Shown here piece after piece: positions 8,188 through 30,039 of a stretch of 64,000 bases of DNA. The notes below the pieces were generated by a model that was not told where the DNA came from, did not search any database, and worked only from the letters and a program-made list of their open reading frames with translations. The position numbers were made by a program, and so were the translations under genes. This DNA is from Dehalococcoidia bacterium (GTDB lineage: Bacteria > Chloroflexota > Dehalococcoidia > Lucifugimonadales > JAGWBF01): positions 1,053,046 through 1,117,045 of the forward strand of contig OZ240207.1 in assembly GCA_965197415.1 (NCBI GenBank), written 5' to 3'. The stretch's first letter is position 1. The number at the start of each line of letters is the position of its first letter.

Positions 8188-8239
8188 TGCGATTGACTCC
8201 TTCTTTTATCGGGGTGGTAGACAGGAAGCGGCGCCGGAG

Positions 8240-9509: not shown

Positions 9510-9599
9510 CGACCCCAAAGCGTTGGCCCCGCTTCATCCAGGCGGCGGCGCTTCCGCGGGTGTTCAACGTGTCCCGCAACCCAGACTTGAGGCGGTGCA

Positions 9600-12035: not shown

Positions 12036-12057
12036 GCTGCTGTTTACTACCTTATAT

Positions 12058-12990
12058 ATGGGGAGTGAGATGTCTCATCCCGACCTCGCTATAGTCACCG
12101 GCGCCTTCAGCTATACAGGAAGGTACGTCGCCCGGCGTTTGCTTGACCAGGGCGTTCGCGTAAGGACCCTCACCCGCAGCCCGAATGCGGAGGATCCCTT
12201 GGCCGACCATGTGGAGGCGGCCCCCCTGGACTTCTCAGACCCCGATGGGCTGAGCCGCTCGATGCAGGGAGCGGGCGTCTTCTATAACACCTACTGGATT
12301 CGGTACGCGCATGGCCGGGTGACCTTCGATCTCGCGGTGGAGAACACCAGAACGCTCTTTGAGGCTGCCAGGAGGGCTGGTGTCGGCAGGGTGGTTCACT
12401 TCTCGGTGACCAACGCCTCATCGGAGTCCGGGCTGCCGTATTTCAGAGGCAAGGCCGAGGTGGAGGATATGCTGGTGGGCTTGGGAATTCCTTATGCCAT
12501 CATCAGACCGACGCTGGTCTTCGGAGTCGGCGACCTGTTGCTCAACAACATGGCCTGGGCGCTGAGGCGGTTTCCCGTATTTCCCGTCTACGGGAACGGC
12601 GACTACCCGGTTCAGCCCGTCTACATCGAAGACCTCGCGGCCCAAGCCGTGGAGGCTGGCTCTCAAAGCGAGAGCTCCGTGGCCGACGCTGCGGGGCCGG
12701 ATACGTTCTCCTTCGAGGCGCTGCTTCGCCTGCTGGCCTCCTCAATGGGCGTCCGAAGGTGGTTCCTGCACACGCCTCCGCGCGTGGGTCTGGCCTTGAC
12801 CGGGCTGGTGGGCCTGCTGATGCGTGACATGGCGCTTACCCGCGACGAGGTTGTTGGTCTCATGGATGGCCTGCTGACATCGGAAGGCGTGCCAACTGGT
12901 ACGACCACGCTGGCGGACTGGCTGGCAGGGAACGGGGACGGCCTCGGGAGGCGGTACGTGTCCGAGCTGCGGCGCAACTGGCGGGGGTAA
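12058..12990 (+). CDS. NmrA-like / atypical SDR NAD(P)-binding protein
   Basis: 310 aa with Rossmann motif LAIVTGAFSYTGRYVARRLL. The general pattern is that of NmrA/NDUFA9-like epimerase-type proteins. An alternative start ATG 12070 has GGGGAG upstream. Confidence 0.8.
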   Translation: MGSEMSHPDLAIVTGAFSYTGRYVARRLLDQGVRVRTLTRSPNAEDPLADHVEAAPLDFSDPDGLSRSMQGAGVFYNTYWIRYAHGRVTFDLAVENTRTLFEAARRAGVGRVVHFSVTNASSESGLPYFRGKAEVEDMLVGLGIPYAIIRPTLVFGVGDLLLNNMAWALRRFPVFPVYGNGDYPVQPVYIEDLAAQAVEAGSQSESSVADAAGPDTFSFEALLRLLASSMGVRRWFLHTPPRVGLALTGLVGLLMRDMALTRDEVVGLMDGLLTSEGVPTGTTTLADWLAGNGDGLGRRYVSELRRNWRG

Positions 12991-13038
12991 TGGCCAGCGA
13001 ACGGCGAGACGAGAGGAGATTCTTGTCAGGGGAGGGAC

Positions 13039-13884
13039 ATGCCAATACCTGAATCGACACTCTCCAGATGGAGCCATCACCAGGCAGGGACGGCCTTCAA
13101 GCAGGCGCACGTACCCATCCGTGAAGCCCTGGACGCCTACAAGGGGTTGTCGCAGTTCAATTACGAAATATTCCTCCAGGGCTCCTACAAGAACGACACC
13201 AATCTCGGTGGGGACAGCGACGTCGACGTGGTCGTCCGGTTGGCCCAAAAGCTCAAGCCTGGCGTAGCCGCCCTTTCCGGCGAACAGCTTCAGGAAGACG
13301 GTTCCCACAGGTTTGTACTGGAACGCTGGCAGTCGTTTCGAGACCACGCAATGAAGGCGATGCGGGCCAGATTCGGCAATGCCGTGAAGAGCGGTCGCAA
13401 AACTCTGAAGCTGCCCAAGGGCAAGATCCCGGCGGATGCCGACCTCGTGGTGACGCTCAGCTACATGCAGGGCATCGGGTTCTATCTCCCCGATGAGGAA
13501 CGTTGGGTGGTGAGCTACCCGCAGCAGCACCACCAACGGGGATTGAAAAAGGAAAAGGCCACAAACGAGCGGTTCAAGAGGACCATACGCATGTTCAAGG
13601 CGGCCCGGAACCACTTGGTCAGCAAGCGGGTGCTCACCAAAGAAGACGCTCCGTCCTACTTCATCGAGTGTTTGCTCTACAACGTTCCCGACCGGCTATT
13701 CGAACAGAGGCTGGCGGCGACCTATACGGGCATCCTCGACTGGCTGAAGACCGCAAAGCTCAAAGACTTCAAGTGCCAGAACGGCCAGGTGCTCTTGTTC
13801 GGGCAAGGCCGGGAACAGTGGTCCATAAAGAAGGCGCGGACGCTCGCCAAGGCGCTGCAGGAGATGTGGGACAGATGGCATTGA
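13039..13884 (+). CDS. SMODS/CD-NTase-like polymerase-beta-fold nucleotidyltransferase, no adjacent effector
   Basis: 281 aa. Catalytic pattern FLQGSYKNDTNLGGDSDVDVVV (GS..DxD) plus a downstream acidic strand IPADADLVVTL. C-terminal helix pattern APSYFIECLLYNVPD is typical of SMODS/OAS-like NTases. RBS GGGGAGGG. Confidence 0.65.
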   Translation: MPIPESTLSRWSHHQAGTAFKQAHVPIREALDAYKGLSQFNYEIFLQGSYKNDTNLGGDSDVDVVVRLAQKLKPGVAALSGEQLQEDGSHRFVLERWQSFRDHAMKAMRARFGNAVKSGRKTLKLPKGKIPADADLVVTLSYMQGIGFYLPDEERWVVSYPQQHHQRGLKKEKATNERFKRTIRMFKAARNHLVSKRVLTKEDAPSYFIECLLYNVPDRLFEQRLAATYTGILDWLKTAKLKDFKCQNGQVLLFGQGREQWSIKKARTLAKALQEMWDRWH

Positions 13885-13941
13885 GGGTGGATGCCGTCGT
13901 CGACCGGGCCTCGGAGAGACTTCAGCCTTGGCAAGAGTCTG

Positions 13942-13997
13942 TTGACCGTACGAAAAGGGAACTCTATACTTTCATAGACTTTCATCACTTTTCATAC
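13942..13997 (+). promoter_or_regulatory. Sigma70-type promoter plus a triple 10-bp direct-repeat operator in front of the HTH-Druantia operon
   Basis: TTGACC (13942-13947), a 17-nt spacer, then TATACT (13965-13970). Three head-to-tail 10-mers follow: ACTTTCATAG, ACTTTCATCA and CTTTTCATAC (13968-13997). They overlap the -10 and the likely start site, 18 nt before ATG 14015. Confidence 0.45.
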
Positions 13998-14014: not shown

Positions 14015-14236
14015 ATGACTTCCACGGAAAGCTGGGTGGACATTGCGGAGGTGGCTGCGCATCTACGGGTGACCAAAGACTCGATATATCGTTGGGTGGA
14101 CTCGAAGAACTTCCCAGCTCACCGCGTAGGTCGTCTGCTCAGATTCAAGCTGTCGGAAGTAGACGACTGGGTGCGGTCTGGAAGTGACGAGGACGCTCCC
14201 TCAGAGGGTGAGCGCAGAAGGACGAATGTCAACTAG
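14015..14236 (+). CDS. Excisionase/MerR-type (HTH_17-like) DNA-binding protein, probable operon regulator
   Basis: 73 aa. WVDIAEVAAHLRVTKDSIYRWVDSKNFPAHRVGRLLRFKLSEVDDWV is the classic AlpA/Xis-type helix-turn-helix. The stop overlaps the next gene start by 11 nt. Confidence 0.8.
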   Translation: MTSTESWVDIAEVAAHLRVTKDSIYRWVDSKNFPAHRVGRLLRFKLSEVDDWVRSGSDEDAPSEGERRRTNVN

Positions 14237-15470
14237 ATCGATTGGTTTCAACTTGGCACTCATTCCTGACGGAGCGGCTTCTGCGGAAACCGATGACTTA
14301 TCACCGTCCTGTGACGATGCCGACGGAGCCTGTCTAAAGGAAGCTATCCATAGCCACCTCTTGAACTTGGGATTCTCCAAGAATGGTAGCGGGTACTTTG
14401 TAGATGGGATTTTGACGAAGCAGAAGATTCGGAATCTGCATGCTGCTCAGCGGCTGGATATTCTGGAGCGGCAGAGGGCCTTTGTCGAAACACATGGTGC
14501 TGAGCTTGCAGAGCACTTTGCGAGCGGTAGCCAGATTGATCCCTCGTTGATTGACCCAGAGCTGGTTGAGGTCTTGCCGGACTCTCTTGATTCTCGGTTA
14601 TTCAGATTTGCTACCCTGTTGTGGTCCGTCCCCGTGTCACAGGGTTTCGGACGTCGACTCCGTTTCCTTGTTAGAGACAGACAGAATGGCTGTCTGATTG
14701 GCCTCTTTGCTCTGGGAGACCCGGTCTTCAATCTTTCTGCGCGGGACAATTGGATCGGTTGGACTCACAAAGACCGTCGTGACCGACTCGTCCATGTCAT
14801 GGATGCCTATGTTGTTGGCGCGGTCCCTCCCTATTCGCAGATGATTGGCGGAAAGCTCGTCGCGGCATTGATGGGCAGCACGGAAGTGAAACGAGCCTAC
14901 GAACGGAAATATCTGGCCCGTCAATCGGTTATTCGCGAGAGGAACCACCGGGCGCGTCTGGTCTTGTTGACTACGACATCGGCGCTGGGAAGGTCATCAA
15001 TCTACAATCGCCTGGCCATACCAGACGGTCCTCGCTTTCTTAGAATCGGAACGACCAAGGGATTCGGCCATTTTCACCTACATGGCAAAATATTCGATTC
15101 GCTTAGAGAGCATCTGAAGGCGAAGGGGCACCCCTATGCTTCAGGCCACAGGTTCGGCATGGGACCGAACTGGAAGCTGCGCGTCGCCAGAGCTGCCCTC
15201 GAAGACGTTGGCATTGATGGGAATTCAATCTTGAAGCACGGCGTCGAGCGAGAGGTGTATGTGATCCCGCTGGCCGACAACTGGAAGGAGGTCCTATCGG
15301 GCAGGCAGAAGAAGGTGCGCTCCCTTACGAGGTCGGCCGCCGAGATATCAGGGTTCTGCCTGAGTCGTTGGATCGTGCCGCGGTCAAATCGTGACAAGAG
15401 CTTTCAGAGCTTCGACAGTGACAGCATCATAACGGCCTTATTGAACGGGGGGCCCGGGTCAGCATGGTAA
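14226..15470 (+). CDS. druA: DUF4338-family protein, Druantia DruA-like
   Basis: The track ORF starts at GTG 14184; ATG 14226 has GAAGGA upstream. DUF4338-type core: LWSVPVSQGFGRRLRFLVRDRQNGCLIGLFALGDPVFNLSARDNWIGWTHKDRRDRLVHVMDAYVVGAVPPYSQMIGGKLVAAL. Confidence 0.75.
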   Translation: MSTRSIGFNLALIPDGAASAETDDLSPSCDDADGACLKEAIHSHLLNLGFSKNGSGYFVDGILTKQKIRNLHAAQRLDILERQRAFVETHGAELAEHFASGSQIDPSLIDPELVEVLPDSLDSRLFRFATLLWSVPVSQGFGRRLRFLVRDRQNGCLIGLFALGDPVFNLSARDNWIGWTHKDRRDRLVHVMDAYVVGAVPPYSQMIGGKLVAALMGSTEVKRAYERKYLARQSVIRERNHRARLVLLTTTSALGRSSIYNRLAIPDGPRFLRIGTTKGFGHFHLHGKIFDSLREHLKAKGHPYASGHRFGMGPNWKLRVARAALEDVGIDGNSILKHGVEREVYVIPLADNWKEVLSGRQKKVRSLTRSAAEISGFCLSRWIVPRSNRDKSFQSFDSDSIITALLNGGPGSAW

Positions 15471-18430
15471 TGGACACTGAGCTTGAGGAATGGCAGGCGC
15501 GCCTGTCGCTGCACTTTTCGACGCTTCGACACAGTCGGCGTGCAAGAGGCGCTACTGAACCGCTCTTCGGACTTGAACATGGACTTTCACAGACGGAAGT
15601 CCAGGAACTTGAGCGCGCAGTGCGAGCCCACATCGCTTATCACCCACCGTCACGGGATCACTGGCTGGCCTGGATAGTGTATTCCGCTGAACTAGGCTAT
15701 CGATACTCCGGTGACGAATACTGGCAGACCTTTGAACAAGAGACGCCTGGATGGTTAGCAAACGGAGACCGGTATAGGATTCGCGAGTTCTACCAGCGGT
15801 TTGTACGAGAGCTCGGTGGAGCAGTTCCATCGGGTCCTTGGGCTGATCACTTCTCCATTATATGTTGGCCCATAACGCATGCCATCCTCCCAAAGGACCT
15901 GCAAATCCAACTGGCTCACACACTCTATGATTCCAGATACCTGCTGACCGAGGATGTCCTCGGGTCGCCAGAGCTTCTGGGGGACCTCATAGCAAGACGT
16001 AGCTGGAATGCCTCATCGCGCTTCCAGAACCTAGCACAGGGGACTCGACTCTTAGGCCAGATAGCCGCCGCTCTTCTCTTTCAAGGACAGGCTAGGTCGG
16101 GTGAGCTCATATACCCTGCTACCCTTGAGAGGATCAGTGAAGATCTAGACCGAGAGCGGCAGGCCCGGGAATGGCTACGGAAGACACGCAGTTCCTTAAG
16201 TGGAGGCGTGCGGATCCGCGGGCTTGGCTCTATCACCAGCCGGGCGGCTCCCTCTAGCATCAATCAATTGGAAGAGGCTAGGTCTACGGTCGCTGCTCTG
16301 GGGATTGAACCGCGCCTCGTGCTTCGACCAGGAGAGACTCCCGGCGTATCGTGGGACGTGTTTCTTGAAATCCCCGACCTCTCGCATCTACTGTTTCGAT
16401 TCCCTCAGACGCGGGCGATATTGACAGGTACTCGCTGCGTAGTTGCAGGGTCATCGGGACGCCCGTTAGCGAGAGGTGGGCTCTTGTATGGCGACCGGCG
16501 GGTAAAGCTTGGTAGGTGGCCGGAACCGGATGAGGTGCTGCTGCAATTCGAGAGCAGTGATTCGCAACTTGATTTTCTCCTTCGCACTGAGTGTCTCCTT
16601 CGCCCAGGTCCCAACTGGCTGTTAAGGGTCGCCTCCGATGGGCTGGCCCATGAGCGCAAGGGCCTGAGAGTTAGGCCCGGTGAACGCTACATCCTCCTAA
16701 GCACCGTAGGGCCAATAGATACGAGCGGACCTGCTACTCCGATAGACGTAGCGTGCGAGGGGGTACATGCAGCGATACTGGACCTGCCCGAGTCCCTCGG
16801 AGCAGATTGGCAAGAATCCATTCAGAAACTAGGGCTCGGGCAGGCAAGGACAATCGAGGTTTGGCCTGCCGGCCTAGCCGCTGCGGCATGGGATGGCGAG
16901 GGTCACGGAGAATGGATAGCCTCGGAACGGCCGTGCCTTGCCATTCTTGCAGATCACCCCCTGGTATCGCTCCGTGTCTCGATGGACACAAGCCCACATC
17001 ACTCCTTTGAACTGACATCCCTAGATCCCGGGGAGCCCCTGTTTCTTGAACTTCCCCAGCTCCCGGTCGGTGTCCATAGGTTGAAGTTCTCCGCACAGAG
17101 TAGTTTGGCAGGCCAGCCTGAGCTTCTTGATGATCAGGAAGCCGTCATCCGCATTCGTGAAGACTTGTCACGGACATCAGTCACTGATCATCGGGGGCCG
17201 CTGTCAGTGCAAGTCGACCCAGTTCATCCCTCAATGGAGGAACTCTGGGACGGTGAGGTCGAGGTTTGGCTTCGAGGTCCACGTAATCGCGAGGTTGTGA
17301 GTCGCGTCTCGTTCTTTGAGAGGAACGGAGGACCTCCGATTCTCGTCAAGCAACTGCCATCGGTCAATTTGCCTATAGGCCCCGAAGATTGGAAGAACCA
17401 TTTCGACAGACACATTCGAAATAGACAGGAAGTGCAGGAGGCTTACGATGCGGCTAACGTCTGCGCGTTGGAGTTCAAGGCTGGTGATTTCGGCGGATAC
17501 ACACTCCGATGCGAACGGCCCTTCACTCCCCTTCGATGGGCATTGAGGCGGGATGGCGGCGCCTACGTGGCCCGGCTGTACGATGACAGCGGCGACCCTG
17601 GGCAACCTGTGTTGAGTCATGTGGCCTTCGAGACTCCGTGTATTGAGCAACAGATCCCATTCGAAACTGATATCCAAGTGCCGGATCGCGGCGGGATGTA
17701 TGTCGCACGAACACCAAGGCATTGCGTTGCGATCATTGTTCCTCCCGTGCTTCACCACGGCTACGGATTTGCGGACCTGGCGCTCACCCCGAACATAGAG
17801 CGATGGACACGATCTCCAGACTCCGCCTTGAGGGTGGTGGAGATTTCGGGCCTGTGGAGCCGGGCGAGGCTGCCCGGTAATGTGATAGCTGCATTCCGAC
17901 GTCAGAAGGTTATGGACGCATTGGCTTGCGAACTCTTCCGTCTTCTATGTGGAGAGAACTGGGCAAGGGCAGAGGAGGAGGCCGCATCTGGAGGGAGAGA
18001 CGCCAGAGTTCTGGAAACCTTAGCCAGTGCGGTTTCCAAGAACCCTACAGAGTCAGGCGCGGGGGCTGTTCTTCTCCGCGATGCGAAAACCATGTCTCTC
18101 CAAGATTGCAGCCATCGAGTTGACCATCTTTGCTCAGTAGCAATGGAATATCGGCTAGTGCCTGAAAGCTTTCGGCGAACGATGACAATCCAGCCGGGGT
18201 CCGCTGGGGTCGTCACTGCCGGGTGGTTAGTGGAACTCGCGTTGAGACTCGCGAGTGATCCTGGCGGCACCGGGCAATGGGCGGGCCCACAGCTGCGCAG
18301 TGGGCTAAACCACTTGATGGACTCGCCGCCTTTGCCGCGAGCCGCGAGACTGGCTGTCATTGCTACTGATTTGTACGTACCCCCCGGGTCTCCATCTGGG
18401 GATCTCTACGCGGGTTGGAGATGGGCATGA
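15464..18430 (+). CDS. Large protein of unknown function in the DruB/DruC (or DruH) position
   Basis: 988-aa ORF with no motif I can name. Its start overlaps the druA stop (ATGGTAATG). Codon usage and G+C match the neighbouring island genes. Confidence 0.8.
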   Translation: MVMDTELEEWQARLSLHFSTLRHSRRARGATEPLFGLEHGLSQTEVQELERAVRAHIAYHPPSRDHWLAWIVYSAELGYRYSGDEYWQTFEQETPGWLANGDRYRIREFYQRFVRELGGAVPSGPWADHFSIICWPITHAILPKDLQIQLAHTLYDSRYLLTEDVLGSPELLGDLIARRSWNASSRFQNLAQGTRLLGQIAAALLFQGQARSGELIYPATLERISEDLDRERQAREWLRKTRSSLSGGVRIRGLGSITSRAAPSSINQLEEARSTVAALGIEPRLVLRPGETPGVSWDVFLEIPDLSHLLFRFPQTRAILTGTRCVVAGSSGRPLARGGLLYGDRRVKLGRWPEPDEVLLQFESSDSQLDFLLRTECLLRPGPNWLLRVASDGLAHERKGLRVRPGERYILLSTVGPIDTSGPATPIDVACEGVHAAILDLPESLGADWQESIQKLGLGQARTIEVWPAGLAAAAWDGEGHGEWIASERPCLAILADHPLVSLRVSMDTSPHHSFELTSLDPGEPLFLELPQLPVGVHRLKFSAQSSLAGQPELLDDQEAVIRIREDLSRTSVTDHRGPLSVQVDPVHPSMEELWDGEVEVWLRGPRNREVVSRVSFFERNGGPPILVKQLPSVNLPIGPEDWKNHFDRHIRNRQEVQEAYDAANVCALEFKAGDFGGYTLRCERPFTPLRWALRRDGGAYVARLYDDSGDPGQPVLSHVAFETPCIEQQIPFETDIQVPDRGGMYVARTPRHCVAIIVPPVLHHGYGFADLALTPNIERWTRSPDSALRVVEISGLWSRARLPGNVIAAFRRQKVMDALACELFRLLCGENWARAEEEAASGGRDARVLETLASAVSKNPTESGAGAVLLRDAKTMSLQDCSHRVDHLCSVAMEYRLVPESFRRTMTIQPGSAGVVTAGWLVELALRLASDPGGTGQWAGPQLRSGLNHLMDSPPLPRAARLAVIATDLYVPPGSPSGDLYAGWRWA

Positions 18431-19506
18431 GACGCCTAAGCGCCAGCGAAGTCCACGCCAGCAAGGTAGCTGAGCTTGGATTGGATGAGACTGCATTGGA
18501 CCTCACCTCGATCGAGGCAATCGCCGCTGCGCTGAGGAGAGCGGCGAACTTCTTGTGCCCTTGCGCAGCAACTACGTTAGTTCGTGCAGTTGCCGAGCCT
18601 TTGCGTGGGCTGATTCAGGACATGGAGGAGACAAGGGAGATAGTCCGGGAAACGCTGGACGCCATGATCGCTATTGGCGACTTCCTTGAGTACCGCGACA
18701 TAGAATCAGATGAGACATCTCGTGCGGCAGTGCTCCTATACGCGGCTCCCCCCAGCTTTGTATCTCGGGACAGTGGCACAGCGATTCTCTTAGGCGTCTC
18801 TACTCCAGCACTCGACAGTCTCGCGGACCGCATCGACTATGAGAACCACCTGCGACGTCTCAGCCCTAGTCTTGGTGAAGACCTCGGTGCAGACCTTGAG
18901 CAACTAGGGTTCAGTGAAGTACCTCAAGACCAGTGGTTGCAAATGCCTCGACGAGAAACCCCGACTCAGCATTTGGCTCACTTGGACCGCCTTCTAAACG
19001 CAGCTGTGCCTTCGGGGGAGGTGGCTGGATTGTCAATACTCGACTGGGACCGCCCGGTCCGGTTCTACCGCGGGCGGTGGACGTCGGCAGGTTCGCTATC
19101 TGGACGGTTTGTGGCGCGGCGTAGTCAGGCCTATGGTGGAGATCTATGGTGCTACATAGAGATAAGCAGCGGAATGCCTGAGCGATTGGTGGATTTTCCA
19201 CTGGGGGACAGTCGATGGCGCGGCTGCGATGAGGCATGGCGTTTGCAGATGGCGATCGACGCCAATAGAGGAAGTGCGCAGGTGTTCAGGATACATCCAG
19301 GCCCAGAGAAATCATATGTGATGCAATTCTTCTCTCCTTTGCCGATGTGGGCTCGACGCAGACTTGACTCGGTAGGACACCTGGTGCCGAGCCCTGGATG
19401 TCTCTTCGCCTATCGATTGGCCGAGGCTGAGTTAGCGGAGGAAGTGCATTTCGCTCATGACGTGCTGTGGCTTGAGGAACTGAACGGCAGCTCAGAACCT
19501 TCATGA
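18415..19506 (+). CDS. Protein of unknown function in the DruC/DruD position
   Basis: 363-aa ORF. Alternative start ATG 18427 forms an ATGA overlap with the upstream stop, which suggests translational coupling. No recognisable motif. Confidence 0.75.
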   Translation: MEMGMRRLSASEVHASKVAELGLDETALDLTSIEAIAAALRRAANFLCPCAATTLVRAVAEPLRGLIQDMEETREIVRETLDAMIAIGDFLEYRDIESDETSRAAVLLYAAPPSFVSRDSGTAILLGVSTPALDSLADRIDYENHLRRLSPSLGEDLGADLEQLGFSEVPQDQWLQMPRRETPTQHLAHLDRLLNAAVPSGEVAGLSILDWDRPVRFYRGRWTSAGSLSGRFVARRSQAYGGDLWCYIEISSGMPERLVDFPLGDSRWRGCDEAWRLQMAIDANRGSAQVFRIHPGPEKSYVMQFFSPLPMWARRRLDSVGHLVPSPGCLFAYRLAEAELAEEVHFAHDVLWLEELNGSSEPS

Positions 19507-19525
19507 GCAGGAGAAAGGGGGGGAG

Positions 19526-22500
19526 ATGTCACTAACTATCATAGAGACCATGCAAGAGATGCAAGGCGCTCTACAGGATTACATCGAAGCGACGTACCAC
19601 ATCAGTCATTCGACCCTTGTAGTTCAGCGCCAGGAGATTCTCCGAACACTTGGCGTCATCCACCAGCGACCCTACTTGGAAAGCACTCCTCGTTACAAGA
19701 CCGGCACGGCGTTCAAGGATCTTGGACTTGACTCGGCCGCCCTTGAAGTCTTCGGCGCTGTCTCCGATGCTGATGGTGAGCTCAACCGCCTGATCTACGA
19801 TCCTCCTTATGAACACCAAGCAGCTTCCACGAAGCTTTCGCTTGTAGACGGCCGTAGCCTCGTGGTCATGACAGGGACTGGGTCTGGCAAAACGGAATGC
19901 TTCCTGTTGCCAATTCTGGGCAAGCTGGCCTCCGAAGCCCAAAGGAAGGGGCAGGTATTTGGAGAAACGGCAGCAGTAAGGGCGATGGTGCTATACCCAA
20001 TGAACGCCTTGGTCAATGACCAACTTGGCCGCCTCAGGCTCATGTTCGCGGACCAACGCATTAGCGGCAAATTCATCAGGTGGTCCGGAAGGCCCGCACG
20101 ATTCGCCCGATATACGAGCCGGACCTTGTACCCGGGAGTACGTGACTCAAGGAAGGACCAAATCAGGCTTGCCCCAATAAGGGACTACTACATCAACAAT
20201 CTGGAAATAGCGGGAGACCCCTCTTCTCCTCAACAAGCTACAGCCAAAGCACTGATCCGGGAACTGCAAGAGCGGGGTAAATGGCCTGCCAAACCCGACC
20301 TGATGAGGTGGTACGGCCAAAGAGGCCAGCGATGGCAGGACTCGAAGACTGGAGAATTCAGGCGAGGTGTAACGCTGCCGGAGGACCCGGAGTTGATTAC
20401 ACGACACGAAATACAAGCAGCACCTCCCGACATCTTGGTCACGAACTACTCGATGTTGGAATACATGATGCTGCGCCCGTTGGAACGGCCAATCTTTGAC
20501 CAAACGCGCGATTGGCTTCGTGCAAACCCAGAAGAGTCATTCCTGTTGGTCATCGACGAGGCTCACCTCTACCGTGGGGCTGCGGGCACAGAGGTAGCGC
20601 TACTCATACGGCGTCTGTGCACACGACTCGGGATTCCGCCAAAGCGTCTACAGGTTATATGCACCAGCGCGAGCATGCAGAATCCAGACTACGCCCTGGA
20701 GTTTGCTGCCCAACTCACAGGAAAGGAATCAGGAGACTTCAGCAAAGTGGAAGGTGAGCTCTTGTTACGTCCCGACGAAGCGAAGGGCTCGGTCGAAGAT
20801 ACCCGCGCGCTAGGGGCGATTGACCTGAGGGCCTTCTACGATGCAGAGACCGACTCTGATCGCATGTCCCACGTTGCAGAGTTCTTACGTTACCGGAGGG
20901 TCGAGCCGTCAGGCCAACTGCATCAAACGTTGCACAGCGCGCTAGAAACTTTCCCGCCCCTGGCGAAACTTATCAACCTGACGATGAGAGAGGCTCAGCC
21001 GGTCGAGGAGCTTTGGGAGGTGCTATCCGATGAAGTCCCTCTTGAAGTCACGACACGCGCAGTCACCAACCTAATCGCCCTCGCTAGCTCGGCTAAGCCT
21101 GATTCAAACCAGCCAGGTTTGATGCCGTGCCGAGTGCACTCCTTCTTCCGGGGTCTCGCCGGACTGTGGGTCTGCATGGACTCTCAATGCAGTGCGCTGC
21201 CTGAAGGTCAACGAGGAGGGCCTTCAGGGAAGCTGTTCAGCCAACCCCGCGATGTATGCGATTGCGGTTCTAGAGTCCTCGAACTCTACACGTGCCGAAA
21301 TTGCGGTACAGCTTACGCTCGAGCCTACACCAATGATGTAGAGGAACCCGATTTCCTTTGGTCAGAGCCGGGCGGAGCGCTAAGGACATTATCTGGGCAA
21401 TACGGCGAATTGAATGCAATCGACCTTCTTCTCGAAGAGCCTGTCTTCGCAGACAGGGTTGAAGCGGCAGACTACGATCTGGTCACAGGACGTTTGAACC
21501 CCCTCAATTTGGGGACGCGGAACCGGCAAGTCTACCTCCGTGCCAACCGTGCGGATCCTCCGGCCACAGATGAGGGCGCCATCGACTCATCCTTGGGTGA
21601 ATTCAAACCGTGCGCAGGGTGCGGCGAGACCGCCGGATTCGGCCGAACCTCTGTTCAGGACCATCAGACCAAGGGTGACCAGCCCTTCCAAGCATTGATT
21701 TCAAAGCAGATTCAGGTGCAGCCCCCTGGTCCCAATCCGGCAACCAAACTAGCCCCCCTTCGCGGGAGGAAAGTCCTTATTTTCTCGGATTCTAGGCAGA
21801 TGGCTGCCCGCTTAGCGCCAAACATCCAGACCTATTCGACGCGAGACGCTTTGCGCCCTCTGATCGTCTTTGGATACGCTCGCCTAAGTGGAAATGCGAC
21901 AATCAACAGATTCCTTTCCCTGGAGGACCTTTACCTTGCAGTGTTGGTCGCAGCAAAGGAGATGGGGGTAAGGCTGAGGCCCGAATTGAAGATCGGTGAG
22001 AGTTTCGAAGGGGAGAATACGGTGGAGCAGGCAGTCGGAAGCGGTGCCTTAGAGGACGATGGTCGACTCTTGGAGCTCCTCATGGAACTCAAGAATTCGC
22101 CACCGCCTGAATCCCTGCTTCGCTCGATCATGGCTTCGATCACCGATAGGTACTATGGTTTGGAGTCGCTCGCGTTAGCATCGCTTGTAGAGCGCCCTGC
22201 CCACACCTCCAAGGTCATGGCTCTGCCTGATATTCCCCAGTATGCGGAGTCAGATGACGAAAAGCTCGCGCTCGCCCGCGCATGGCTACGCTGTTGGATG
22301 AGATCGGGAGTTTGGTTGAGCCGAATGCCAGGAGCGTGGTCGTCTACAGTTGTTCGCTCACACGCAGGCAGATTCCAGGCTATGAGTCGTCTTCTACCCG
22401 ACTCGTCAGGTAGGGGGCTCTTTGAAAGGAAGTGGCTTCCGCAGCTGTTGGAAATGTTTGCCGAGCCGACGACCAGAGGAATGTACCGACTGGCTGGGAA

Positions 22501-25057
22501 AGAGTTGTCGCTGGCGATCGGAGGAGACTGGTCGTACTGCCAATCCTGCCGGACAGCCCAAAGACCCATTCCCGGAAGAATCACTTGTGCCAACTGCGGG
22601 CGTGACGCTACTGAACCCATCGACCCAGACACAGACTCTGTCTTTGTCGCCAGGAAAGGGTATTACCGGACGAGCACATTGGCCGCATTGAAGTCACCGC
22701 CCATACCACCACTGGCGCTCATTGCTGCAGAACACACTGCGCAGGTCAACACCGCACAGGCGGACGAGATATTCTCTAAGGCCGAAGAACACGAGATCCT
22801 CTTTCAAGATGTGGATTTGGGACCTGGGGACACGGGGCGAGAGAGACCGGCGATAGATGTCCTCTCTTGCACGACCACTATGGAAGTTGGCATCGACATA
22901 GGTGCTCTTTCAGGGGTGTCTCTGAGGAACATGCCGCCAGCAAGGGCGAACTACCAACAGCGTGCCGGCCGTGCCGGCCGTCGAGGAACGAATATCGCAA
23001 CCGTAACTGCATTCGGTAGTGCTGACAGTCATGATGAGCACCACTTCGAACATCCAGACCAGATGATCCGAGGAAAGGTCGACGACCCAACACTGACGCT
23101 AGGCAATCCGGTAATTGCGCGACGTCACGTTACGGCACATCTGCTGCAAAGATACCACCAGGCAAGATTACCTCAGATTAGTCCAGAAGATCAGCCCCAT
23201 CTGTTCGCTGTGCTTGGGACGGTCGCGGACTTCAAGAATCCCGGCAAGGTATTGAATCGTGTTGATCTCGAAGAATGGCTGCGCTCGAATGAGGTCGACT
23301 TGAAGGGAGATGTCGATGCATTGCTCCCAAGAGAGGTTGCTGGCACCGAACGCCAAGAACTTCTGGACCGATTAGTCGAAGCAACGCTAGAGTCCATTGA
23401 TACTGCGCTCGAGAACGATTCCCCAGGGTCGGATGAAGGCAGACAGCTAGGCGAGGAAGAAGATACGGCGAGCTTGGAGGCGCCGGATGAGCCTGGTGAG
23501 GAAGGACCTGTCCGAGACCCTTCTGAGAATCTTCTCGACCGCCTGCTCTACAAGGCAGTGCTTCCTCGTTACGCATTTCCCACAGACGTCGCCGGATTTC
23601 ATGTCTTCGACCAAGAGCGCTCAACCCGCTATCGCGCGGCCTTTCGCTATACGCCATCGCAGGGGCTTGCTATTGCGCTTTCTCAGTACGCACCGGGAAA
23701 GGAGGTCTGGATCGATGGCAAACTCTGGACTTCAGGAGCACTCTACTCGCCGATATCGAACGATCGGTACGATGCTTGGAACAGCCGACGGCTTTACTAC
23801 GAATGCAAGAATTGCCACTATGCTCTGACCAGATCTGTGGGGGAAGGAGAAAGGGGAGAGACCCGAAACTGTGAGGGGTGTGGTGGCATAGGAACCATGG
23901 GTCCGGCGAAGAATTGGCTGAGACCTCCTGGGTTTGCACATCCCGTCAGCCGAGAAGAGGGTACGTCGCCAGATGACCAACCCACCAGGAGTTATGCCAC
24001 CCGCGCCAAGTTGACGATGGCCACGCCATCAGATCCAGAGAAGTGGACGGATCTCAATGAGCGTATTCGCAAACACTACGCCAGGGATTATCTTCTCGTC
24101 ACAAACCGTGGGCCGCGTGACGAAGGTTACTCGTATTGCACGAGATGCGGCCTCATCGAACCGACCGCAACGCGGAACGGGCAGGTCGGAACAGACCACC
24201 GTAAGCCATTTCCAGACCCATCCAATCCGAATTGTCCGGGAGCCGGAACGACTACTGGATTGGTGCTAGGAACGGACTTCATCAGCGATGTGCTTCTCAT
24301 ATCTATAGGCACTAGGCCTCCGCTCACCCTGCTTCCTGGGCTGCTGCCCACTAACGTTGCGCTGCGCACTATCAGCGAAGCGCTCACAGTGGCCGCCTGT
24401 AGGCTCTTGGAATTGGACCCCAACGAGTTGCAGGCCGAATACCGACCAGCGCTTACTGAAGATGGGCGCCAAGGTCTCGAAGCAGAGATCTACCTTTATG
24501 ACACTTTGCCCGGTGGTGCTGGCTTTGCTCGGCGTGTCGGTGAACTGGGACTAGATGTCTTTGAGGAAGCCCTACATATCCTGGAGGAATGCCCAGAGAC
24601 CTGCGACCGGTCATGCTACCGCTGCTTAAGAAGCTACAAGAACAAGTTTGAACACGATCTCTTGGATCGTCATCTCGGCGCAAGTCTGCTGAGATATCTG
24701 ATCTACGGAAGCAATCCGACAATGGACGCTGGACGTCTTCAAGGTTCAACTAAACTGCTCTTCGAAGATCTCATTAGACAACAGACCCAGACTACGGCGG
24801 TAGCGTTCAATCACCAGGCGACACTCCCCAGCCTTGGCCCAGTCACGATTCCAATATACGTGAGACGGGCCGATGGAACCGAATTCTTCGTGGGTCTCTG
24901 CGAACCGCTCACGCGCGATACCCCGGCTGATGTTGTGCTCAGGGACGTAAAGCAGTGGTGTCCCACAATCCCGGTCGTGCTCTGCGATGAGATTTTGGTG
25001 TCGCGGAACCTCCCTGCCGCCACGAATCACATTCTGGAGAAGATGGGTTTGGGCTAA
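19526..25057 (+). CDS. druE: Giant SF2 helicase with C-terminal DUF1998/MrfA-type zinc module, Druantia DruE-like
   Basis: 1843 aa. Walker A MTGTGSGKTECF; DEAH box LLVIDEAHLYRGAAGTE; motifs V-VI TTTMEVGIDIGAL..NYQQRAGRAGRRG. Several CxxC ribbons (CDCGSRVLELYTCRNCG; CQSCRT..CANCG; CKNCHY..CEGCG). Terminal cluster CPETCDRSCYRCLRSYKNKFEH. RBS GGGGGGAG. Confidence 0.85.
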   Translation: MSLTIIETMQEMQGALQDYIEATYHISHSTLVVQRQEILRTLGVIHQRPYLESTPRYKTGTAFKDLGLDSAALEVFGAVSDADGELNRLIYDPPYEHQAASTKLSLVDGRSLVVMTGTGSGKTECFLLPILGKLASEAQRKGQVFGETAAVRAMVLYPMNALVNDQLGRLRLMFADQRISGKFIRWSGRPARFARYTSRTLYPGVRDSRKDQIRLAPIRDYYINNLEIAGDPSSPQQATAKALIRELQERGKWPAKPDLMRWYGQRGQRWQDSKTGEFRRGVTLPEDPELITRHEIQAAPPDILVTNYSMLEYMMLRPLERPIFDQTRDWLRANPEESFLLVIDEAHLYRGAAGTEVALLIRRLCTRLGIPPKRLQVICTSASMQNPDYALEFAAQLTGKESGDFSKVEGELLLRPDEAKGSVEDTRALGAIDLRAFYDAETDSDRMSHVAEFLRYRRVEPSGQLHQTLHSALETFPPLAKLINLTMREAQPVEELWEVLSDEVPLEVTTRAVTNLIALASSAKPDSNQPGLMPCRVHSFFRGLAGLWVCMDSQCSALPEGQRGGPSGKLFSQPRDVCDCGSRVLELYTCRNCGTAYARAYTNDVEEPDFLWSEPGGALRTLSGQYGELNAIDLLLEEPVFADRVEAADYDLVTGRLNPLNLGTRNRQVYLRANRADPPATDEGAIDSSLGEFKPCAGCGETAGFGRTSVQDHQTKGDQPFQALISKQIQVQPPGPNPATKLAPLRGRKVLIFSDSRQMAARLAPNIQTYSTRDALRPLIVFGYARLSGNATINRFLSLEDLYLAVLVAAKEMGVRLRPELKIGESFEGENTVEQAVGSGALEDDGRLLELLMELKNSPPPESLLRSIMASITDRYYGLESLALASLVERPAHTSKVMALPDIPQYAESDDEKLALARAWLRCWMRSGVWLSRMPGAWSSTVVRSHAGRFQAMSRLLPDSSGRGLFERKWLPQLLEMFAEPTTRGMYRLAGKELSLAIGGDWSYCQSCRTAQRPIPGRITCANCGRDATEPIDPDTDSVFVARKGYYRTSTLAALKSPPIPPLALIAAEHTAQVNTAQADEIFSKAEEHEILFQDVDLGPGDTGRERPAIDVLSCTTTMEVGIDIGALSGVSLRNMPPARANYQQRAGRAGRRGTNIATVTAFGSADSHDEHHFEHPDQMIRGKVDDPTLTLGNPVIARRHVTAHLLQRYHQARLPQISPEDQPHLFAVLGTVADFKNPGKVLNRVDLEEWLRSNEVDLKGDVDALLPREVAGTERQELLDRLVEATLESIDTALENDSPGSDEGRQLGEEEDTASLEAPDEPGEEGPVRDPSENLLDRLLYKAVLPRYAFPTDVAGFHVFDQERSTRYRAAFRYTPSQGLAIALSQYAPGKEVWIDGKLWTSGALYSPISNDRYDAWNSRRLYYECKNCHYALTRSVGEGERGETRNCEGCGGIGTMGPAKNWLRPPGFAHPVSREEGTSPDDQPTRSYATRAKLTMATPSDPEKWTDLNERIRKHYARDYLLVTNRGPRDEGYSYCTRCGLIEPTATRNGQVGTDHRKPFPDPSNPNCPGAGTTTGLVLGTDFISDVLLISIGTRPPLTLLPGLLPTNVALRTISEALTVAACRLLELDPNELQAEYRPALTEDGRQGLEAEIYLYDTLPGGAGFARRVGELGLDVFEEALHILEECPETCDRSCYRCLRSYKNKFEHDLLDRHLGASLLRYLIYGSNPTMDAGRLQGSTKLLFEDLIRQQTQTTAVAFNHQATLPSLGPVTIPIYVRRADGTEFFVGLCEPLTRDTPADVVLRDVKQWCPTIPVVLCDEILVSRNLPAATNHILEKMGLG

Positions 25058-25090
25058 TTCATACCCATCACGATCTGGAGGAGGCGCGCC

Positions 25091-26398
25091 ATGAGCGTCG
25101 CATGCCCGAAGTGCGGAAATGAGGAATTGAGGTTGGACCCCATCAGTCGGTTCCGTCTCGGAATACCGCAACTCAGCGATCTGGAGCAGGCTGTCGTCGT
25201 GCTGTCTTGTCAGCCGTGTGGCAGCGACTTCCAATTTCGTATCCATGGACGAAATCGACCGAGCTTCTCGCACTTCATGCATGTTGGGGACGATGGCAAG
25301 CCTGAAACGGATGGTCTCCGTCGGGGATACATATCATTGTGGCCTGACACGGTCGTCAAGAAGGCGTCTGTCGATTATCGCTTCGCGCACAAGGATGGGC
25401 AGAATATTCTGTGGCCGATGAACGAGGCCAGGATTCAGACCGGCACAGGCGTCGACCAATACGGCGACCCTGACCTCATGGCGGAGTTCGCGAAGGAGTA
25501 TCTGAAACAGCACTGGGTGCTCTTGAAGCCGGGACGGTTGCCGCAAACACTCGTCGAAGTCATGCCGTCGCTGCTACTGCTGGTCACCGCAGCCGAGCTG
25601 GCGACGAAGGCTTTCGCCCTGCGTTCGAAGGGTGAAACACCCCGAACACACGACCTAGTAGAGCTCTATGACGGCTTGGACCCTGAGCATCGAGCGGCTG
25701 TCGAGTCTCGATTCGGCGGGTGTCGGCTAGTTGTGGGTCTCACATCCATTGGCGCCGATGCTCCTAAGATTCAGGACATATTGGGCACGTACGCCGACAT
25801 CTATGGCGGCAAGCGCGGCGCCTACCAAGAGGCCAAGTTCTACGCCGAGCCCACGACCATGCTGCCAGAGGCTAGCAATTTAAGGGGTGCCAACCTTATC
25901 AAGGGGAACACCCCGTATCCGACTTTCATGCCTTATCTGGTTGAGGCGATCGTGGACTGCTACTACTTCTACTCAGGGCTTGAGCGGCTTCGCAGACGCG
26001 GCGCTGAGATACATGAACTCGGCCCTAACTCAACGAGCCACGGTTACGGAGACTGGGTTCTGAGGCCTTCGTCGTTGGACCTCGCGGTGATCATCGTTTC
26101 ACAACAGGAGTCCAAAGACTCTGGCCACAATGACCTCCCCTCCTTTGCGAGCTTCAAGTCACATCACCCGACTGGCCTCCAGGCCGACTGGATGTACGGA
26201 GGGAGCACTCTTCTCTTCTACGACGCAACCGGCTCAAAGCCTCGGGACGGCATCGAGACCATCGCTGACATTGAATGCCACATCATAAGCGAGGAACAAG
26301 TTCGCATGCACTCCCGCGATCTGGATAGGTTGGCCGACAGACTTGAAGCAATCGACGCCGGAGACACGCCCCTGGGTGCCCTCCCGCCAGTTCGCTAG
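25091..26398 (+). CDS. Zn-ribbon protein with a central HEPN-like helical segment, unknown function, co-oriented 33 nt after druE
   Basis: 435 aa. N-terminal CPKCGNEE..(x31)..CQPCGSD ribbon. The central string LLLLVTAAELATKAFALRSKGETPRTHDLVELYDGL resembles the HEPN (PF05168-type) E-L-x-x-K-A ... T-H-D-L-x-x-L helices. The HEPN call comes from pattern memory only. Confidence 0.6.
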   Translation: MSVACPKCGNEELRLDPISRFRLGIPQLSDLEQAVVVLSCQPCGSDFQFRIHGRNRPSFSHFMHVGDDGKPETDGLRRGYISLWPDTVVKKASVDYRFAHKDGQNILWPMNEARIQTGTGVDQYGDPDLMAEFAKEYLKQHWVLLKPGRLPQTLVEVMPSLLLLVTAAELATKAFALRSKGETPRTHDLVELYDGLDPEHRAAVESRFGGCRLVVGLTSIGADAPKIQDILGTYADIYGGKRGAYQEAKFYAEPTTMLPEASNLRGANLIKGNTPYPTFMPYLVEAIVDCYYFYSGLERLRRRGAEIHELGPNSTSHGYGDWVLRPSSLDLAVIIVSQQESKDSGHNDLPSFASFKSHHPTGLQADWMYGGSTLLFYDATGSKPRDGIETIADIECHIISEEQVRMHSRDLDRLADRLEAIDAGDTPLGALPPVR

Positions 26399-26901
26399 CC
26401 AGGGATAATCCTTCTGTAATGGGCTTCCTGGCAGACCAGACGCCAGCGACCACGGCAACCGCGGGCGCGTAACGCACGAGGATCGGCTACGATCGTCTTC
26501 AAAGCCACCGACAGCGTTGGGCGGGAGGGTGATGGCTATCTAGGTTCACCTGAAGAGGCTCGAACTCCCCGCGAGGACCGCTGTGCCAGGGCTCACAGAG
26601 CCCCCAACCACATCTCGAAGATGGTTCCACCTACTATCCCCTTAGGCCCACCACCGCTTACGGTAGATACCGCAATCTTTGAGATGTCGCTCGGCAGCCT
26701 ATCGGCGCACAGAGGACTCGCGATTCCCGTAGTGTGACGCGCGTGGTGACGGAAGGACGGAAGGAGCGCCGCGCGGGCCCCAGCTCCCAATTATCTGGCG
26801 TCCTCCTCTTCCTGTCCTTAAGCCGTTGGCATCCCCTAGCCTCGCTGGCTCGCCAAATTCTGCTACGATACGATAGGAGTTCCTTGGAGTTCGCTGTTCA
26901 G

Positions 26902-27598
26902 CTAACCCTGTTCCGAAACACGGCTTGAGATACTTACGGTGATAGGGCCTCTTCCGCTGAACCCATGCCCACCTGGGTTCATATAGCCACTGTTACCAAC
27001 ATTTCCAGTTCTTCCCGCGATCATGTATGTATATCGGTGTAATTCAGGTACAGAATCTCTTTCCCTGATGCATATTTGCAAGTGGGTTCCCGAAGGGTCT
27101 AGATAGGCAGTAAACTCGAGGCCCGCGAGCAGTTCGAGAAGCCTCGACGATGTCCATAGATTCTGCTTGACTGGCTCATTGTCCGGTGCTTGAGCAACAG
27201 CTTGGGTATAGCACTTCTGTGCTTCGCTGAATCTCCCCAAGCACATCAGCGCATTCCCCTTGTTGAATGTGGCATGCCAATTGTCAGATGCAACCTCGTT
27301 GTATGCCGAAATCGCCTCTTCGAAGCGGAGCATGTCAGCATACGTGTTGGCCAGATTGAATTGGTATGTGGCGGGACCGGGAGCTAACTCAATCACTTGT
27401 AGATAGTCTTTCAAGGCCCCTCTGTAGTCCTTAAGTTCGACCCTGGAGTTGGCTCGGTTGAAGTAAATCATGTGGCCGATCATGATACTTTGAGGGAATT
27501 TCGTCATCGTGGTGATCGCCCTATCGTAGTCCTCTATCGCCTCGACGTGATTACCCAGTTCGGCGTGAGCGTTGGCTCTCAAGAAATAAATCCTATAG
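26902..27598 (-). pseudogene. C-terminal part (TPR repeats plus an unknown C-terminal domain) of an FRG-TPR gene split by an IS insertion
   Basis: The reading frame is open up to the IS boundary (..YRIYFLRANAHAELGNHVEAIEDYDRAI..). The track reports only the part from the first Met (26902-27582). It joins 29196-30039 in frame once the IS and one ATAG copy are removed. Confidence 0.8.
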
Positions 27599-29195: not shown

Positions 29196-30039
29196 ATAGT
29201 GGTCGGGATTGAGGTCCACGAACCTGCCGTAGGCCTCTATGGCGTGTTGAAATGCACCTTGCTGGTAATACCGATTCCCTGCGATGAGATAATCGTCCTG
29301 GCTGAGTGAAACGGGATATGCAACACGGTTGGTCTCTGCGAAGCCGTGTGCGTCCAGAAACAATGACCTGTGGCTTACATCAAGCAGTCCGAGTTCTCCG
29401 ATGAGTTCATGTTTATCCTTCTGGGCGATTTTGATTTCCGCGATCACATTGCTATCCTCGGAGATCTTCGGCCTCCCGATGACAAACACGCTGCGTTGCC
29501 TGAGTATCCTAGCCAACGCGTCTCCACTTGCCATAGGTTCCCAATACGCTATGTTCGGAGGTTCTCCCTTCGGAAGGAATAGGCTTGCGACTCCCTGCTC
29601 GCTCTCGTCACTTGGGATCATAGCTACCTGAATGGGATCATTCAGATTCATGACGAACAACTTCCCATCTGCCTCAGGTTCTTCGCAAGCGAACCAGAGT
29701 CCGACAAGCGGGTTCCAACTGAAATCCAGCAAACCGGTGGCGGCTCTCAGATGTTGCAATTTGGCGAGCAACTGCAAGTCCGAAAGCTCACGCCCCAATT
29801 CAATGCCAAGTCCCTGTGTGCGTGCCGGAGCAATTAGTGTGCTGTTGTGATAGTCCAGATAGAGACTTGGAAATTCAGGACTATTTTGTACACCTTCTCC
29901 ACGATGCTTTCTCAACCTTCGCGTCGCCGCGGAGTGAAGAGGCCAGTGTGCATTGCCCTGTCCAACTAAAGGCGTAGGTTCCAACACCCAATGCCGTGGT
30001 GGTATCGCTGATCTTGCTCAGATACTCGTTAAGTTTCAT
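29196..30039 (-). pseudogene. N-terminal part (FRG domain plus first TPR) of the IS-split FRG-TPR gene, probably also frameshifted near its 5-prime end
   Basis: FRG motifs: LVGQGNAHWPLHSAATR, LAKLQHLRAATGLLDFSWNPLVGLWFAC, RILRQRSVFVIG. The ORF runs into the IS and stops there (..NPDHYERVP*). ATG 30039-30037 lies 5 nt after the RES stop in the pre-IS66 arrangement, but is in a different frame from the FRG frame (track start GTG 29987). Confidence 0.7.

Follow-up and report, generated by a model that had tools for sequence, protein, structure and literature searches.

The window, as the analyzed stretch of 64,000 nucleotides (nt) from a Dehalococcoidia bacterium is called here (assembly GCA_965197415.1, contig OZ240207.1, positions 1,053,046 to 1,117,045, forward strand), contains a predicted Druantia phage-defense operon with the gene order (HTH)-DruA-X988-DruD-DruE, in which HTH is a small helix-turn-helix (HTH) protein and X988 a protein of 988 amino acids (aa). 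Type I Druantia was reportedly defined by Doron and colleagues in 2018 as druABCDE. The combined evidence favored, at a probability of roughly 0.7, an intact operon of the type I lineage in which X988 stands in the place of DruB and DruC, with a 435-aa gene immediately downstream of druE as a separate cassette. Sequence comparisons point to a sister architecture of type I Druantia that is widespread but has no name, and in which the middle of the operon is non-canonical.

Druantia Genes in the Window

An initial annotation, made from the sequence alone, had described six co-oriented genes joined by overlaps or by gaps of less than 35 nt. All six open reading frames (ORFs) and all junctions were recovered at the same coordinates (Table 1). 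Read from the sequence, the HTH stop codon (14234-14236) overlapped the DruA start (ATG 14226) by 11 nt and the DruA stop codon (15468-15470) overlapped the X988 start (ATG 15464) by 7 nt, while the X988 stop codon (18428-18430) overlapped the candidate DruD starts at 18415, 18421, and 18427. The DruD stop codon (19504-19506) and the DruE start (ATG 19526) were separated by a 19-nt gap with a purine-rich ribosome-binding site (RBS), GGAGAAAGGGGGGGAG. A 33-nt gap containing GGAGGAGG separated the DruE stop codon (25055-25057) from the start of the 435-aa gene (ATG 25091). The whole operon lies in a stretch of low GC content, from approximately 13 to 35 kb, with ca. 56% GC as compared to ca. 65% in the flanks.

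Identification of DruA and DruE in the initial annotation, which was based on a DUF4338-type core and on helicase motifs, was borne out by profile searches. DUF4338 (Pfam DruA) and PADLOC DruA1 profiles matched the 414-aa protein strongly (Table 1), and comparison with an alignment of canonical DruA sequences gave an hhalign probability of 100% (E=6e-149). The core string quoted in the initial annotation was present at residue 142, and alignments of homologues ran from residue 1, which supported the ATG at 14226. In DruE, the Walker A motif (GSGKT at 119), the DEAH box (at 344), motif VI (QRAGRAGR at 1145), and the terminal zinc cluster (CPETCDRSCYRCLRSYKN at 1689-1706) were all found. PADLOC DruE1 aligned with this protein from end to end (1922 bits), exceeded the DruE2, DruE3, and DruE4 models by about 1280 bits, and was accompanied by Pfam matches to DEAD, Helicase_C, and MZB/DUF1998 (2e-13 for the latter). 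Walker A, DEAH, and the four zinc-cluster cysteines were invariant in 81/81 aligned DruE sequences. As both the DUF4338 and the DUF1998 profile matched, the assignment of the operon to Druantia stood. DruE also matched PDB chains 9tu7 (4e-82) and 9wae (9e-69), which belong to type III Druantia. Sequence and profile searches of the PDB gave no match for X988, DruA, DruD, or the 435-aa protein, and no deposited structures of type I accessory proteins were found in them.

Profile evidence identifies the 363-aa protein as DruD, because residues 3-358 aligned end to end with positions 1-356 of the 359 positions of PADLOC DruD1 (7.5e-116). Its similarity to canonical DruD was remote yet significant (hhalign probability 90.9%, E=1.1e-6). 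Two proteins of unknown family had initially been placed between DruA and DruE; this description still applies to X988, for which no model exists, and no longer to the 363-aa protein. A methyltransferase assignment for DruD was considered and rejected, its only signal being PADLOC MTase_II at E=0.0022, without Pfam or PDB support. Scans of the six proteins with PADLOC and Pfam profiles revealed no methylase, in agreement with the initial annotation.

With respect to the composition of type I, DruA together with DruE, DruD immediately 5' of DruE, and a DruE1-type helicase were present, and DruB and DruC were absent, with no PADLOC match at E≤10 in the operon proteins. None of the six proteins had a PADLOC match to DruM, DruF, or DruG (type II), to DruF or DruL (type IV), or to DruH (type III), and the DruE3 models scored far below DruE1.

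Comparison of X988 With DruB and DruC

Searches of PADLOC, Pfam, and NCBIfam with X988 gave no match, even at E=10. A canonical set of 18 loci was used for comparison, comprising P. putida pKF715A (L002), R. solanacearum pUW163a (L084), and 16 metagenome contigs. Gene order in these loci was A-B (~550 aa)-C (~625 aa)-D (~350 aa)-E (~1836 aa), and their B and C proteins matched PADLOC DruB1 (6e-230) and DruC1 (5e-272). BLASTP of X988 against DruB and against DruC returned nothing (E>0.3). Profile-profile comparison (hhalign) of a 73-sequence X988 alignment with 16-sequence alignments of DruB and DruC gave probabilities of 0.2 and 0.1%, respectively, for the whole protein and of at most 0.6% when X988 was divided into four domains. 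As positive controls of the same procedure, DruA (100%) and DruD (90.9%) were recognized across both architectures. Hidden Markov model (HMM) searches of a 61-sequence database with the HMMER filters off likewise left X988 and DruB/DruC unconnected (E>0.05), while the DruD control was detected. Canonical DruB starts with a Cys-rich CxxC motif and canonical DruC matches the coiled-coil models of JetC/LmuB; X988 contains neither a CxxC pair nor a long coiled coil.

The AlphaFold2 (AF2) model of X988 had a mean local confidence (pLDDT) of 76.7 and a predicted template modeling (TM) score, pTM, of 0.46. It comprised a helical N-terminal domain (~1-245), a disordered linker, a beta-rich middle part (~280-760), and a helical C-terminal domain (~785-970). 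Foldseek retrieved only generic FN3/Ig arrays with TM values of about 0.09, among them fibronectin, gp130, alpha-2-macroglobulin, and phage tail-tip proteins. The modeled core may thus be described as a beta-sandwich array, and no further functional inference was drawn from the structural matches. Most of the invariant residues of the X988 family sit in the N-terminal domain. In the phage genomes searched, no match to X988 was found.

A fused or reduced type I system, one of two interpretations offered in the initial annotation, was not supported by these results, since BLASTP, HMM, and hhalign comparisons were negative for X988 as a whole and by domain and since the CxxC pair and the coiled coil were absent from it. 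Of the two alignments named in the initial annotation as marks of an ordinary type I system, that of the 988-aa protein with DruB plus DruC and that of the 363-aa protein with DruD, only the latter was obtained. We consider it unlikely that X988 is nevertheless a DruB-DruC fusion, or that it shares with them a common ancestor from which it has diverged beyond recognition, which would make the operon a functionally plain druABCDE. X988 does occupy the same position between orthologous DruA and DruD proteins, and its length is comparable (988 aa versus about 1,180 aa for the two proteins). Moreover, DruD is itself only weakly recognizable between the clades, so that faster-evolving partners could pass the detection limit. 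Against this stand the negative comparisons and missing motifs described above, the modeled beta-sandwich core, and the lack of any split or intermediate form of X988 among 80 loci that encode it.

Recurrence of the DruA-X988-DruD-DruE Unit

Among the candidates scored, the X988 family had no fewer than 1,229 clusters at 90% identity. An exhaustive HMM search gave 1,533 clusters at 50% identity, 835 of which had E≤1e-30. Almost all clusters were 940-1010 aa long and aligned end to end, and a pattern scan located X988 in at least 152 species-representative genomes. Eighty loci, retrieved from such genomes via X988 itself, were analyzed for gene order. They originated from Chloroflexota, Acidobacteriota, Planctomycetota, Gemmatimonadota, Myxococcota, Pseudomonadota, Spirochaetota, Bacteroidota, and other phyla. 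DruD lay directly 3' of X988 in 73/80 loci and was followed by DruE in 70/80, in both cases every locus with room for the gene. Neither DruB nor DruC occurred in any of the 80. Directly upstream of X988, DruA was found in 52 of 78 loci, 40 times in the short form and 12 times in a long form (677 aa, PADLOC PDLC00001 1.7e-200); in the remaining loci it was mostly encoded elsewhere in the locus. In one permutation of the gene order (L040, 19524-20906), a short-form DruA (Pfam DruA 1.2e-103) followed druE instead of preceding X988.

A simple neighbor-joining tree of 81 DruE sequences showed a clean split between a clade associated with DruB/DruC and a clade associated with X988, the latter including DruE from the window. 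The accessory set thus co-segregates with the helicase. PADLOC DruE1 fitted both clades, with 2332 bits (B/C) and 1922 bits (X988). The closest relatives of the window locus were Dehalococcoidia metagenome-assembled genomes that share its left flank. Of the records in a plasmid collection, 5 contained full-length X988 and 2 contained canonical DruC. In diversity, the X988 variant appears to equal or exceed the canonical form. Three Sinorhizobium medicae plasmids (NZ_CP140892.1, NZ_CP140917.1, and NZ_CP140931.1) carried X988-type loci in which druE was in pieces, with an IS3-family transposase in between; these copies are probably inactivated.

The recurrent unit is DruA-X988-DruD-DruE. The six-gene order of the initial annotation did not recur, as the 435-aa gene was found in 0/80 loci and the HTH gene directly upstream of the operon in only 7/80, all of them close relatives. 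Persistence of DruA, DruD, and DruE, while DruB plus DruC are swapped for a single unrelated protein across hundreds of lineages, separates a conserved core from an exchangeable module.

The 435-aa Gene Downstream of druE

For the 435-aa protein, PADLOC gave no match at E=10, and Pfam and NCBIfam gave nothing beyond one sub-threshold HEPN match, although the protein has a family of its own with 255 matches. Its AF2 model (pLDDT 81.5) contained an N-terminal beta domain, a helical core (~127-300), and a C-terminal alpha/beta domain, and its sequence contains two conserved CxxC pairs (CPKC at 5 and CQPC at 40). All HEPN signals were below significance. These included a Pfam HEPN match at E=0.007, a precomputed PF05168 assignment of a homologue, and Foldseek matches with E values of 0.085-0.8 and TM scores to the target of 0.4-0.5, among which HEPN structures recurred. 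A conserved Rx4-6H motif was not found in the family, in which invariant R178 and H187 are eight residues apart. The helical core was weakly alike to HEPN proteins (PF05168; TT1696 1ufb, ST0689 1wol, and HepT toxins), from which the 435-aa protein differs by its additional N-terminal Zn-ribbon/beta domain and C-terminal alpha/beta domain. On the basis of these sequence and model comparisons, the initial label "Zn-ribbon/HEPN-like" is plausible but weak.

The 435-aa gene was also missing from the genomes next closest to the window (L004, L005, L027, and L034, among the 80), and its position 3' of druE was seen elsewhere only in a single locus (L102). This locus is a near-identical relative of the window (DruE 94-97% aa identity, 94.5% nt identity across the junction), and its gene adjacency is therefore not independent evidence. 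Its druE (2436-7967) was called as three ORFs of 409, 726, and 708 aa, collinear with DruE from the window at 94-97% identity, probably because a long-read assembly introduced frameshift errors or because the gene is a pseudogene. Homologues of the 435-aa protein with 77-83% identity were solitary, beside a type I restriction-modification system, UvrD/AAA genes, or housekeeping genes, and a homologue with 43% identity was encoded near ThiF/JAB/HD-CE genes. Nucleotide similarity to another locus (L108) was limited to positions 25044-26544 of the window, that is, from the druE stop codon to approximately 150 nt past the 435-aa gene, and these bounds are indicative of a discrete cassette. We regard the gene as most likely an independent neighbor in the defense island, namely a mobile cassette of a single gene that came to lie 3' of druE in this lineage.

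This distribution also bears on the possibility that the operon represents a true six-gene subtype, with HTH and the 435-aa protein as functional parts, the latter being an effector of RNase type that would substitute for the Cas4-like nuclease of related loci (see below). The short gap after druE with its good RBS, the repeated adjacency in the near-identical relative, the weak HEPN signals, and the use of the same slot for an effector in other loci are all consistent with such a subtype. It is nonetheless improbable in view of the dependence of the second locus, the absence of the gene from 80/80 other X988 loci, the solitary close homologues, the sharp limits of the DNA shared with L108, and the lack of a conserved Rx4-6H motif. 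Poorest of all fared the notion of a decaying, non-functional type I remnant that lost druB/druC and gained an unrelated gene: although two insertion sequence (IS) transposases and an apparently IS-split gene lie nearby in the island, none of the five genes is shortened in comparison with homologues, catalytic and Zn-binding residues of DruE are intact, and the recurrence of a tightly coupled architecture in many phyla, together with hundreds of full-length X988 clusters, effectively refutes it.

HTH Gene, Candidate Promoter, and Accessory Genes of Related Loci

Presence upstream of druA of an excisionase-type HTH gene that is translationally coupled to it, as initially described, was corroborated by the 11-nt overlap and by the match to HTH_17 (Table 1). 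The protein matched TIGR01764 (2.6e-13; 50.1 versus a cutoff of 28.8), scored 64 bits with NCBIfam MAD1 (NF047737), below the equivalog cutoff of 80, and matched PADLOC mad1 at 8.4e-10. It is a putative regulator of transcription, encoded by an accessory gene that is specific to the lineage.

Promoter and terminator scans were overall not above shuffled expectation, and only the site at 13942-13970, which scored 10/12 matches, was used because it is conserved across genomes. Its -35 (TTGAC) and -10 (TATACT) elements and the GACTTTCAT repeats were kept in the window and in the four next-closest loci, amid diverging other intergenic DNA. This conservation suggests a dedicated, probably autoregulated promoter of the HTH-Druantia operon.

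In 30 of the 62 loci with room for it, including L006, L009-L011, L013, L014, L016, and L017, a Cas4/RecB-type PD-(D/E)xK nuclease of ca. 415 aa was encoded 0-18 nt after druE and translationally coupled to it. These nucleases matched Pfam PDDEXK_1 (1e-17 to 4e-19) and, weakly, PADLOC DruK (2.5e-12), and had a C-terminal Cys cluster. The nuclease is absent from the window, where the slot after druE holds the 435-aa gene; in 4 loci the slot is filled by a P-loop helicase-like protein. A sub-branch (L028, L029, L035, L068, ca. 16 more, and plasmid L003) carried a GHKL ATPase (HATPase_c_3, MzaB-like) and long-form DruA upstream of X988, sometimes on the opposite strand and sometimes headed by another protein, of 329 aa, whose C-terminal domain is an HTH_17.

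The N-Terminal Domain of X988 in Other Loci

The N-terminal helical domain of X988 (~240 residues) recurred alone, in proteins of ca. 1000-1260 aa encoded near YprA-type helicase clusters (Table 1). In searches of loci resembling the defense island system associated with restriction-modification (DISARM), tblastn detected it at 1e-11 to 7e-5. In Rhizobium and Leisingera, the gene for this protein was accompanied by one for an SNF2 (DpdE/DrmD-like) helicase, on the opposite strand; no SNF2 gene was annotated within the stretch of the Azospirillum locus that was examined. All three loci adjoin DISARM-like DrmA/DrmB or DruE-like clusters with UvrD helicases, accompanied by NERD in Rhizobium and Leisingera. 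A weak DruD-like match (1.3e-5) was present in the Leisingera locus. No PADLOC model exists for the partner proteins that carry the N-terminal domain.

Surrounding Defense Island

The operon sits in a defense island. A CD-NTase gene, with an intact GS...DxD motif and 130 nt upstream of HTH, was found at the same spacing, together with the HTH-Druantia block, in the four next-closest loci. Its sequence suggests an active enzyme, which is regarded here as a neighbor of the Druantia system. No recognizable effector of a cyclic oligonucleotide-based antiphage signaling system (CBASS) adjoins the gene in the window, where HTH lies downstream and an NmrA/epimerase-like gene upstream of it.

Downstream of the operon, a gene for an FRG-domain/TPR protein (26902-27582, minus strand; PADLOC PDC-S15-like, 6.6e-17), with a TPR-rich remainder at 29181-29987 (minus strand), was apparently split by an IS5/IS1182-type DDE transposase (DUF772 plus DDE_Tnp_1; 27741-29117, minus strand), around which no clear terminal inverted repeats were found. 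The same low-GC island encodes an IS66-family transposase (30108-31550, plus strand) and a 508-aa RES-domain protein (31598-33124, minus strand); a 492-aa ORF opposite to and overlapping the IS66 ORF is probably spurious. Two-component system genes occur on both flanks of the island. No tRNA genes were present in the window and no integrase among the ORFs scanned that could mark the island borders. Farther downstream (37813-59109, plus strand), a single ORF encodes a giant surface-type protein of 7,098 aa with FN3, subtilase (Peptidase_S8), many cadherin-like, and further FN3 domains, in a region with strong AT skew (about 0.25) and 65-70% GC.

Table 1. Coordinates of the operon and its neighbors in the window, and of stretches that encode proteins with the X988 N-terminal domain in other loci.
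Feature	Sequence	Position	Strand	Match or remark
CD-NTase (CBASS-type cyclase), upstream neighbor	Window	13039..13884	+	PADLOC Cyclase PDLC00788 3.7e-80
Promoter-like site	Window	13942..13995	+	TTGACC, 17 nt, TATACT, then ACTTTCAT/GACTTTCAT direct repeats; candidate promoter/operator of the HTH-Druantia operon
HTH, 73 aa, excisionase family (HTH_17, MAD1-like)	Window	14015..14236	+	Pfam HTH_17 1.5e-14
DruA, 414 aa, short form, DUF4338	Window	14226..15470	+	PADLOC DruA1 5.2e-139; Pfam DruA PF14236 1e-84
X988, 988 aa, in DruB+DruC position	Window	15464..18430	+	No PADLOC, Pfam, or NCBIfam match
DruD, 363 aa	Window	18415..19506	+	PADLOC DruD1 PDLC00010 7.5e-116
DruE, 1843 aa, YprA/MrfA-family superfamily 2 (SF2) helicase, MZB (DUF1998) zinc domain	Window	19526..25057	+	PADLOC DruE1 E=0
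435-aa Zn-ribbon and weakly HEPN-like protein	Window	25091..26398	+	Neighboring gene, not a Druantia component
X988-N-domain protein	Rhizobium pTA1_2 (L113)	8001-13894		Beside DrmA 2.9e-205 and DrmB 4.5e-84
X988-N-domain protein, 1012 aa	Leisingera (L107)	2883-8890		hhalign probability 98.3%, E=1e-14
X988-N-domain protein	Azospirillum (L112)	7248-11027		

Interpretation and Significance

We know of no established mechanism for type I Druantia and of no settled roles for DruA to DruD. By analogy with type III DruE, DruE from the window would be an ATP-driven motor that engages phage DNA intermediates that are forked or contain single-stranded DNA (ssDNA). DruA (GNAT-like), X988, and DruD could together serve as an accessory module for the sensing of infection or the licensing of DruE. 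X988 may then act as a large adaptor or sensor in the role of DruB plus DruC, its N-terminal helical domain docking to the YprA-type helicase machinery and its Ig-like array serving as a binding surface. Destruction of DNA would be optional and supplied by an add-on, such as the Cas4-like nuclease found after druE in about half of the relatives. Since the window lacks this nuclease, its system might interfere directly or rely on nucleases of the host or of neighboring genes.

Several observations weigh against an intact type I-lineage operon with X988 in the DruB-DruC place and a separate 435-aa cassette. Remote homology of X988 to DruB or DruC may be compatible with the negative profile results, as DruD is barely detectable across the two clades (E=1.1e-6), and the packing of the X988 domains in the model is uncertain because of the low pTM, with generic structural matches. 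No terminator was detected in the gap between druE and the 435-aa gene, which may be co-transcribed with druE and cooperate functionally with it in this lineage. The 80 loci were selected via X988 and are therefore silent on how frequently DruA-DruD-DruE loci of the same clade occur without it. It is an inference that the proteins form a complex, that X988, DruA, and DruD act as outlined above, and that HTH regulates the operon; phage defense by the locus is predicted from its genes.

The second interpretation in the initial annotation, an undescribed Druantia subtype, held in part. Its 988-aa component has neither a model nor a name, and in the literature searched neither the protein nor its architecture was named or described and no experimental data for X988-type loci were found. 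On the other hand, these loci are fitted by the type I models of PADLOC for long-form DruA, for DruD, and for DruE, and databases have thus partly absorbed them under type I. The largest accessory protein of the variant is without name, HMM, or literature, and X988-type systems may be missed or wrongly labeled by annotation tools for which DruB and DruC are mandatory. Occurrence of the N-terminal domain beside DISARM-like helicases suggests a docking interaction across the whole YprA helicase family. A bolder interpretation, which we put forward tentatively and regard as doubtful, is that X988 loci constitute a separate Druantia type of greater diversity than canonical druABCDE, with X988 evolutionarily unrelated to DruB and DruC, its N-terminal domain a general docking module for YprA-family defense helicases (DruE and DrmA/DrmB), and the position after druE an exchangeable effector slot. 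If so, docking via this domain would link Druantia to DISARM-like systems, and the slot would take a Cas4-like nuclease, a P-loop helicase or, in the window, a Zn-ribbon/HEPN-like protein.

Comparison With Known Systems

Among known systems, type I Druantia is closest to the operon in the window. Orthologous DruA (DUF4338), DruD, and DruE occur in the same order and orientation and are tightly coupled, each of them aligns end to end with its PADLOC type I model, DruE is of similar size (~1840 aa) with a similar domain set, and a methylase is absent from both. The two differ in that X988 stands where type I has DruB (~550 aa), with its Cys-rich N-terminus, and DruC (~625 aa), with its coiled coil, in the separate deep clade of DruE, and in a DruD that is only remotely similar. 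Unlike type I, relatives of the window variant often encode in addition a Cas4-like nuclease, or else a GHKL ATPase with the 677-aa long DruA. DUF4338 has been described as GNAT-like (PMC10853773), and m6A changes have been associated with type I Druantia, for which no methylase was identified (Ojima et al., 2024).

Druantia type III (DruH-DruE) is likewise centered on a DruE helicase of the YprA family, although DruH is absent from the window. According to a preprint (10.64898/2026.05.12.722862) and its companion preprints, DruE of type III is a helicase of 3'-to-5' polarity, and its activating substrates are ssDNA, forked DNA, or DNA with a 3' overhang. Type III DruE has PLD-like nuclease domains and type I DruE an inactivated Vsr domain at its C-terminus (Bell et al., 2025), and a protruding dimerization domain is specific for type III (Hu et al., 2026).

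In DISARM-like DrmA/DrmB clusters, a protein with the X988 N-terminal domain accompanies a YprA-family (DUF1998) helicase, as it does in X988-type Druantia. Only this domain is common to the two, and short-form DruA and a clear DruD are absent from these clusters. The HTH protein of the window resembles MAD1 of the methylation-associated defense system (MADS), of which no other genes are present.

Druantia type IV, as modeled in PADLOC, consists of DruE, DruF, and DruL (Payne et al., 2021; PMC8565338). Its accessory proteins differ from those in the window, which lacks DruF and DruL. Type IV nevertheless provides a precedent for a type defined by a swap of accessory genes around a shared DruE, and the window presents the analogous case for type I.

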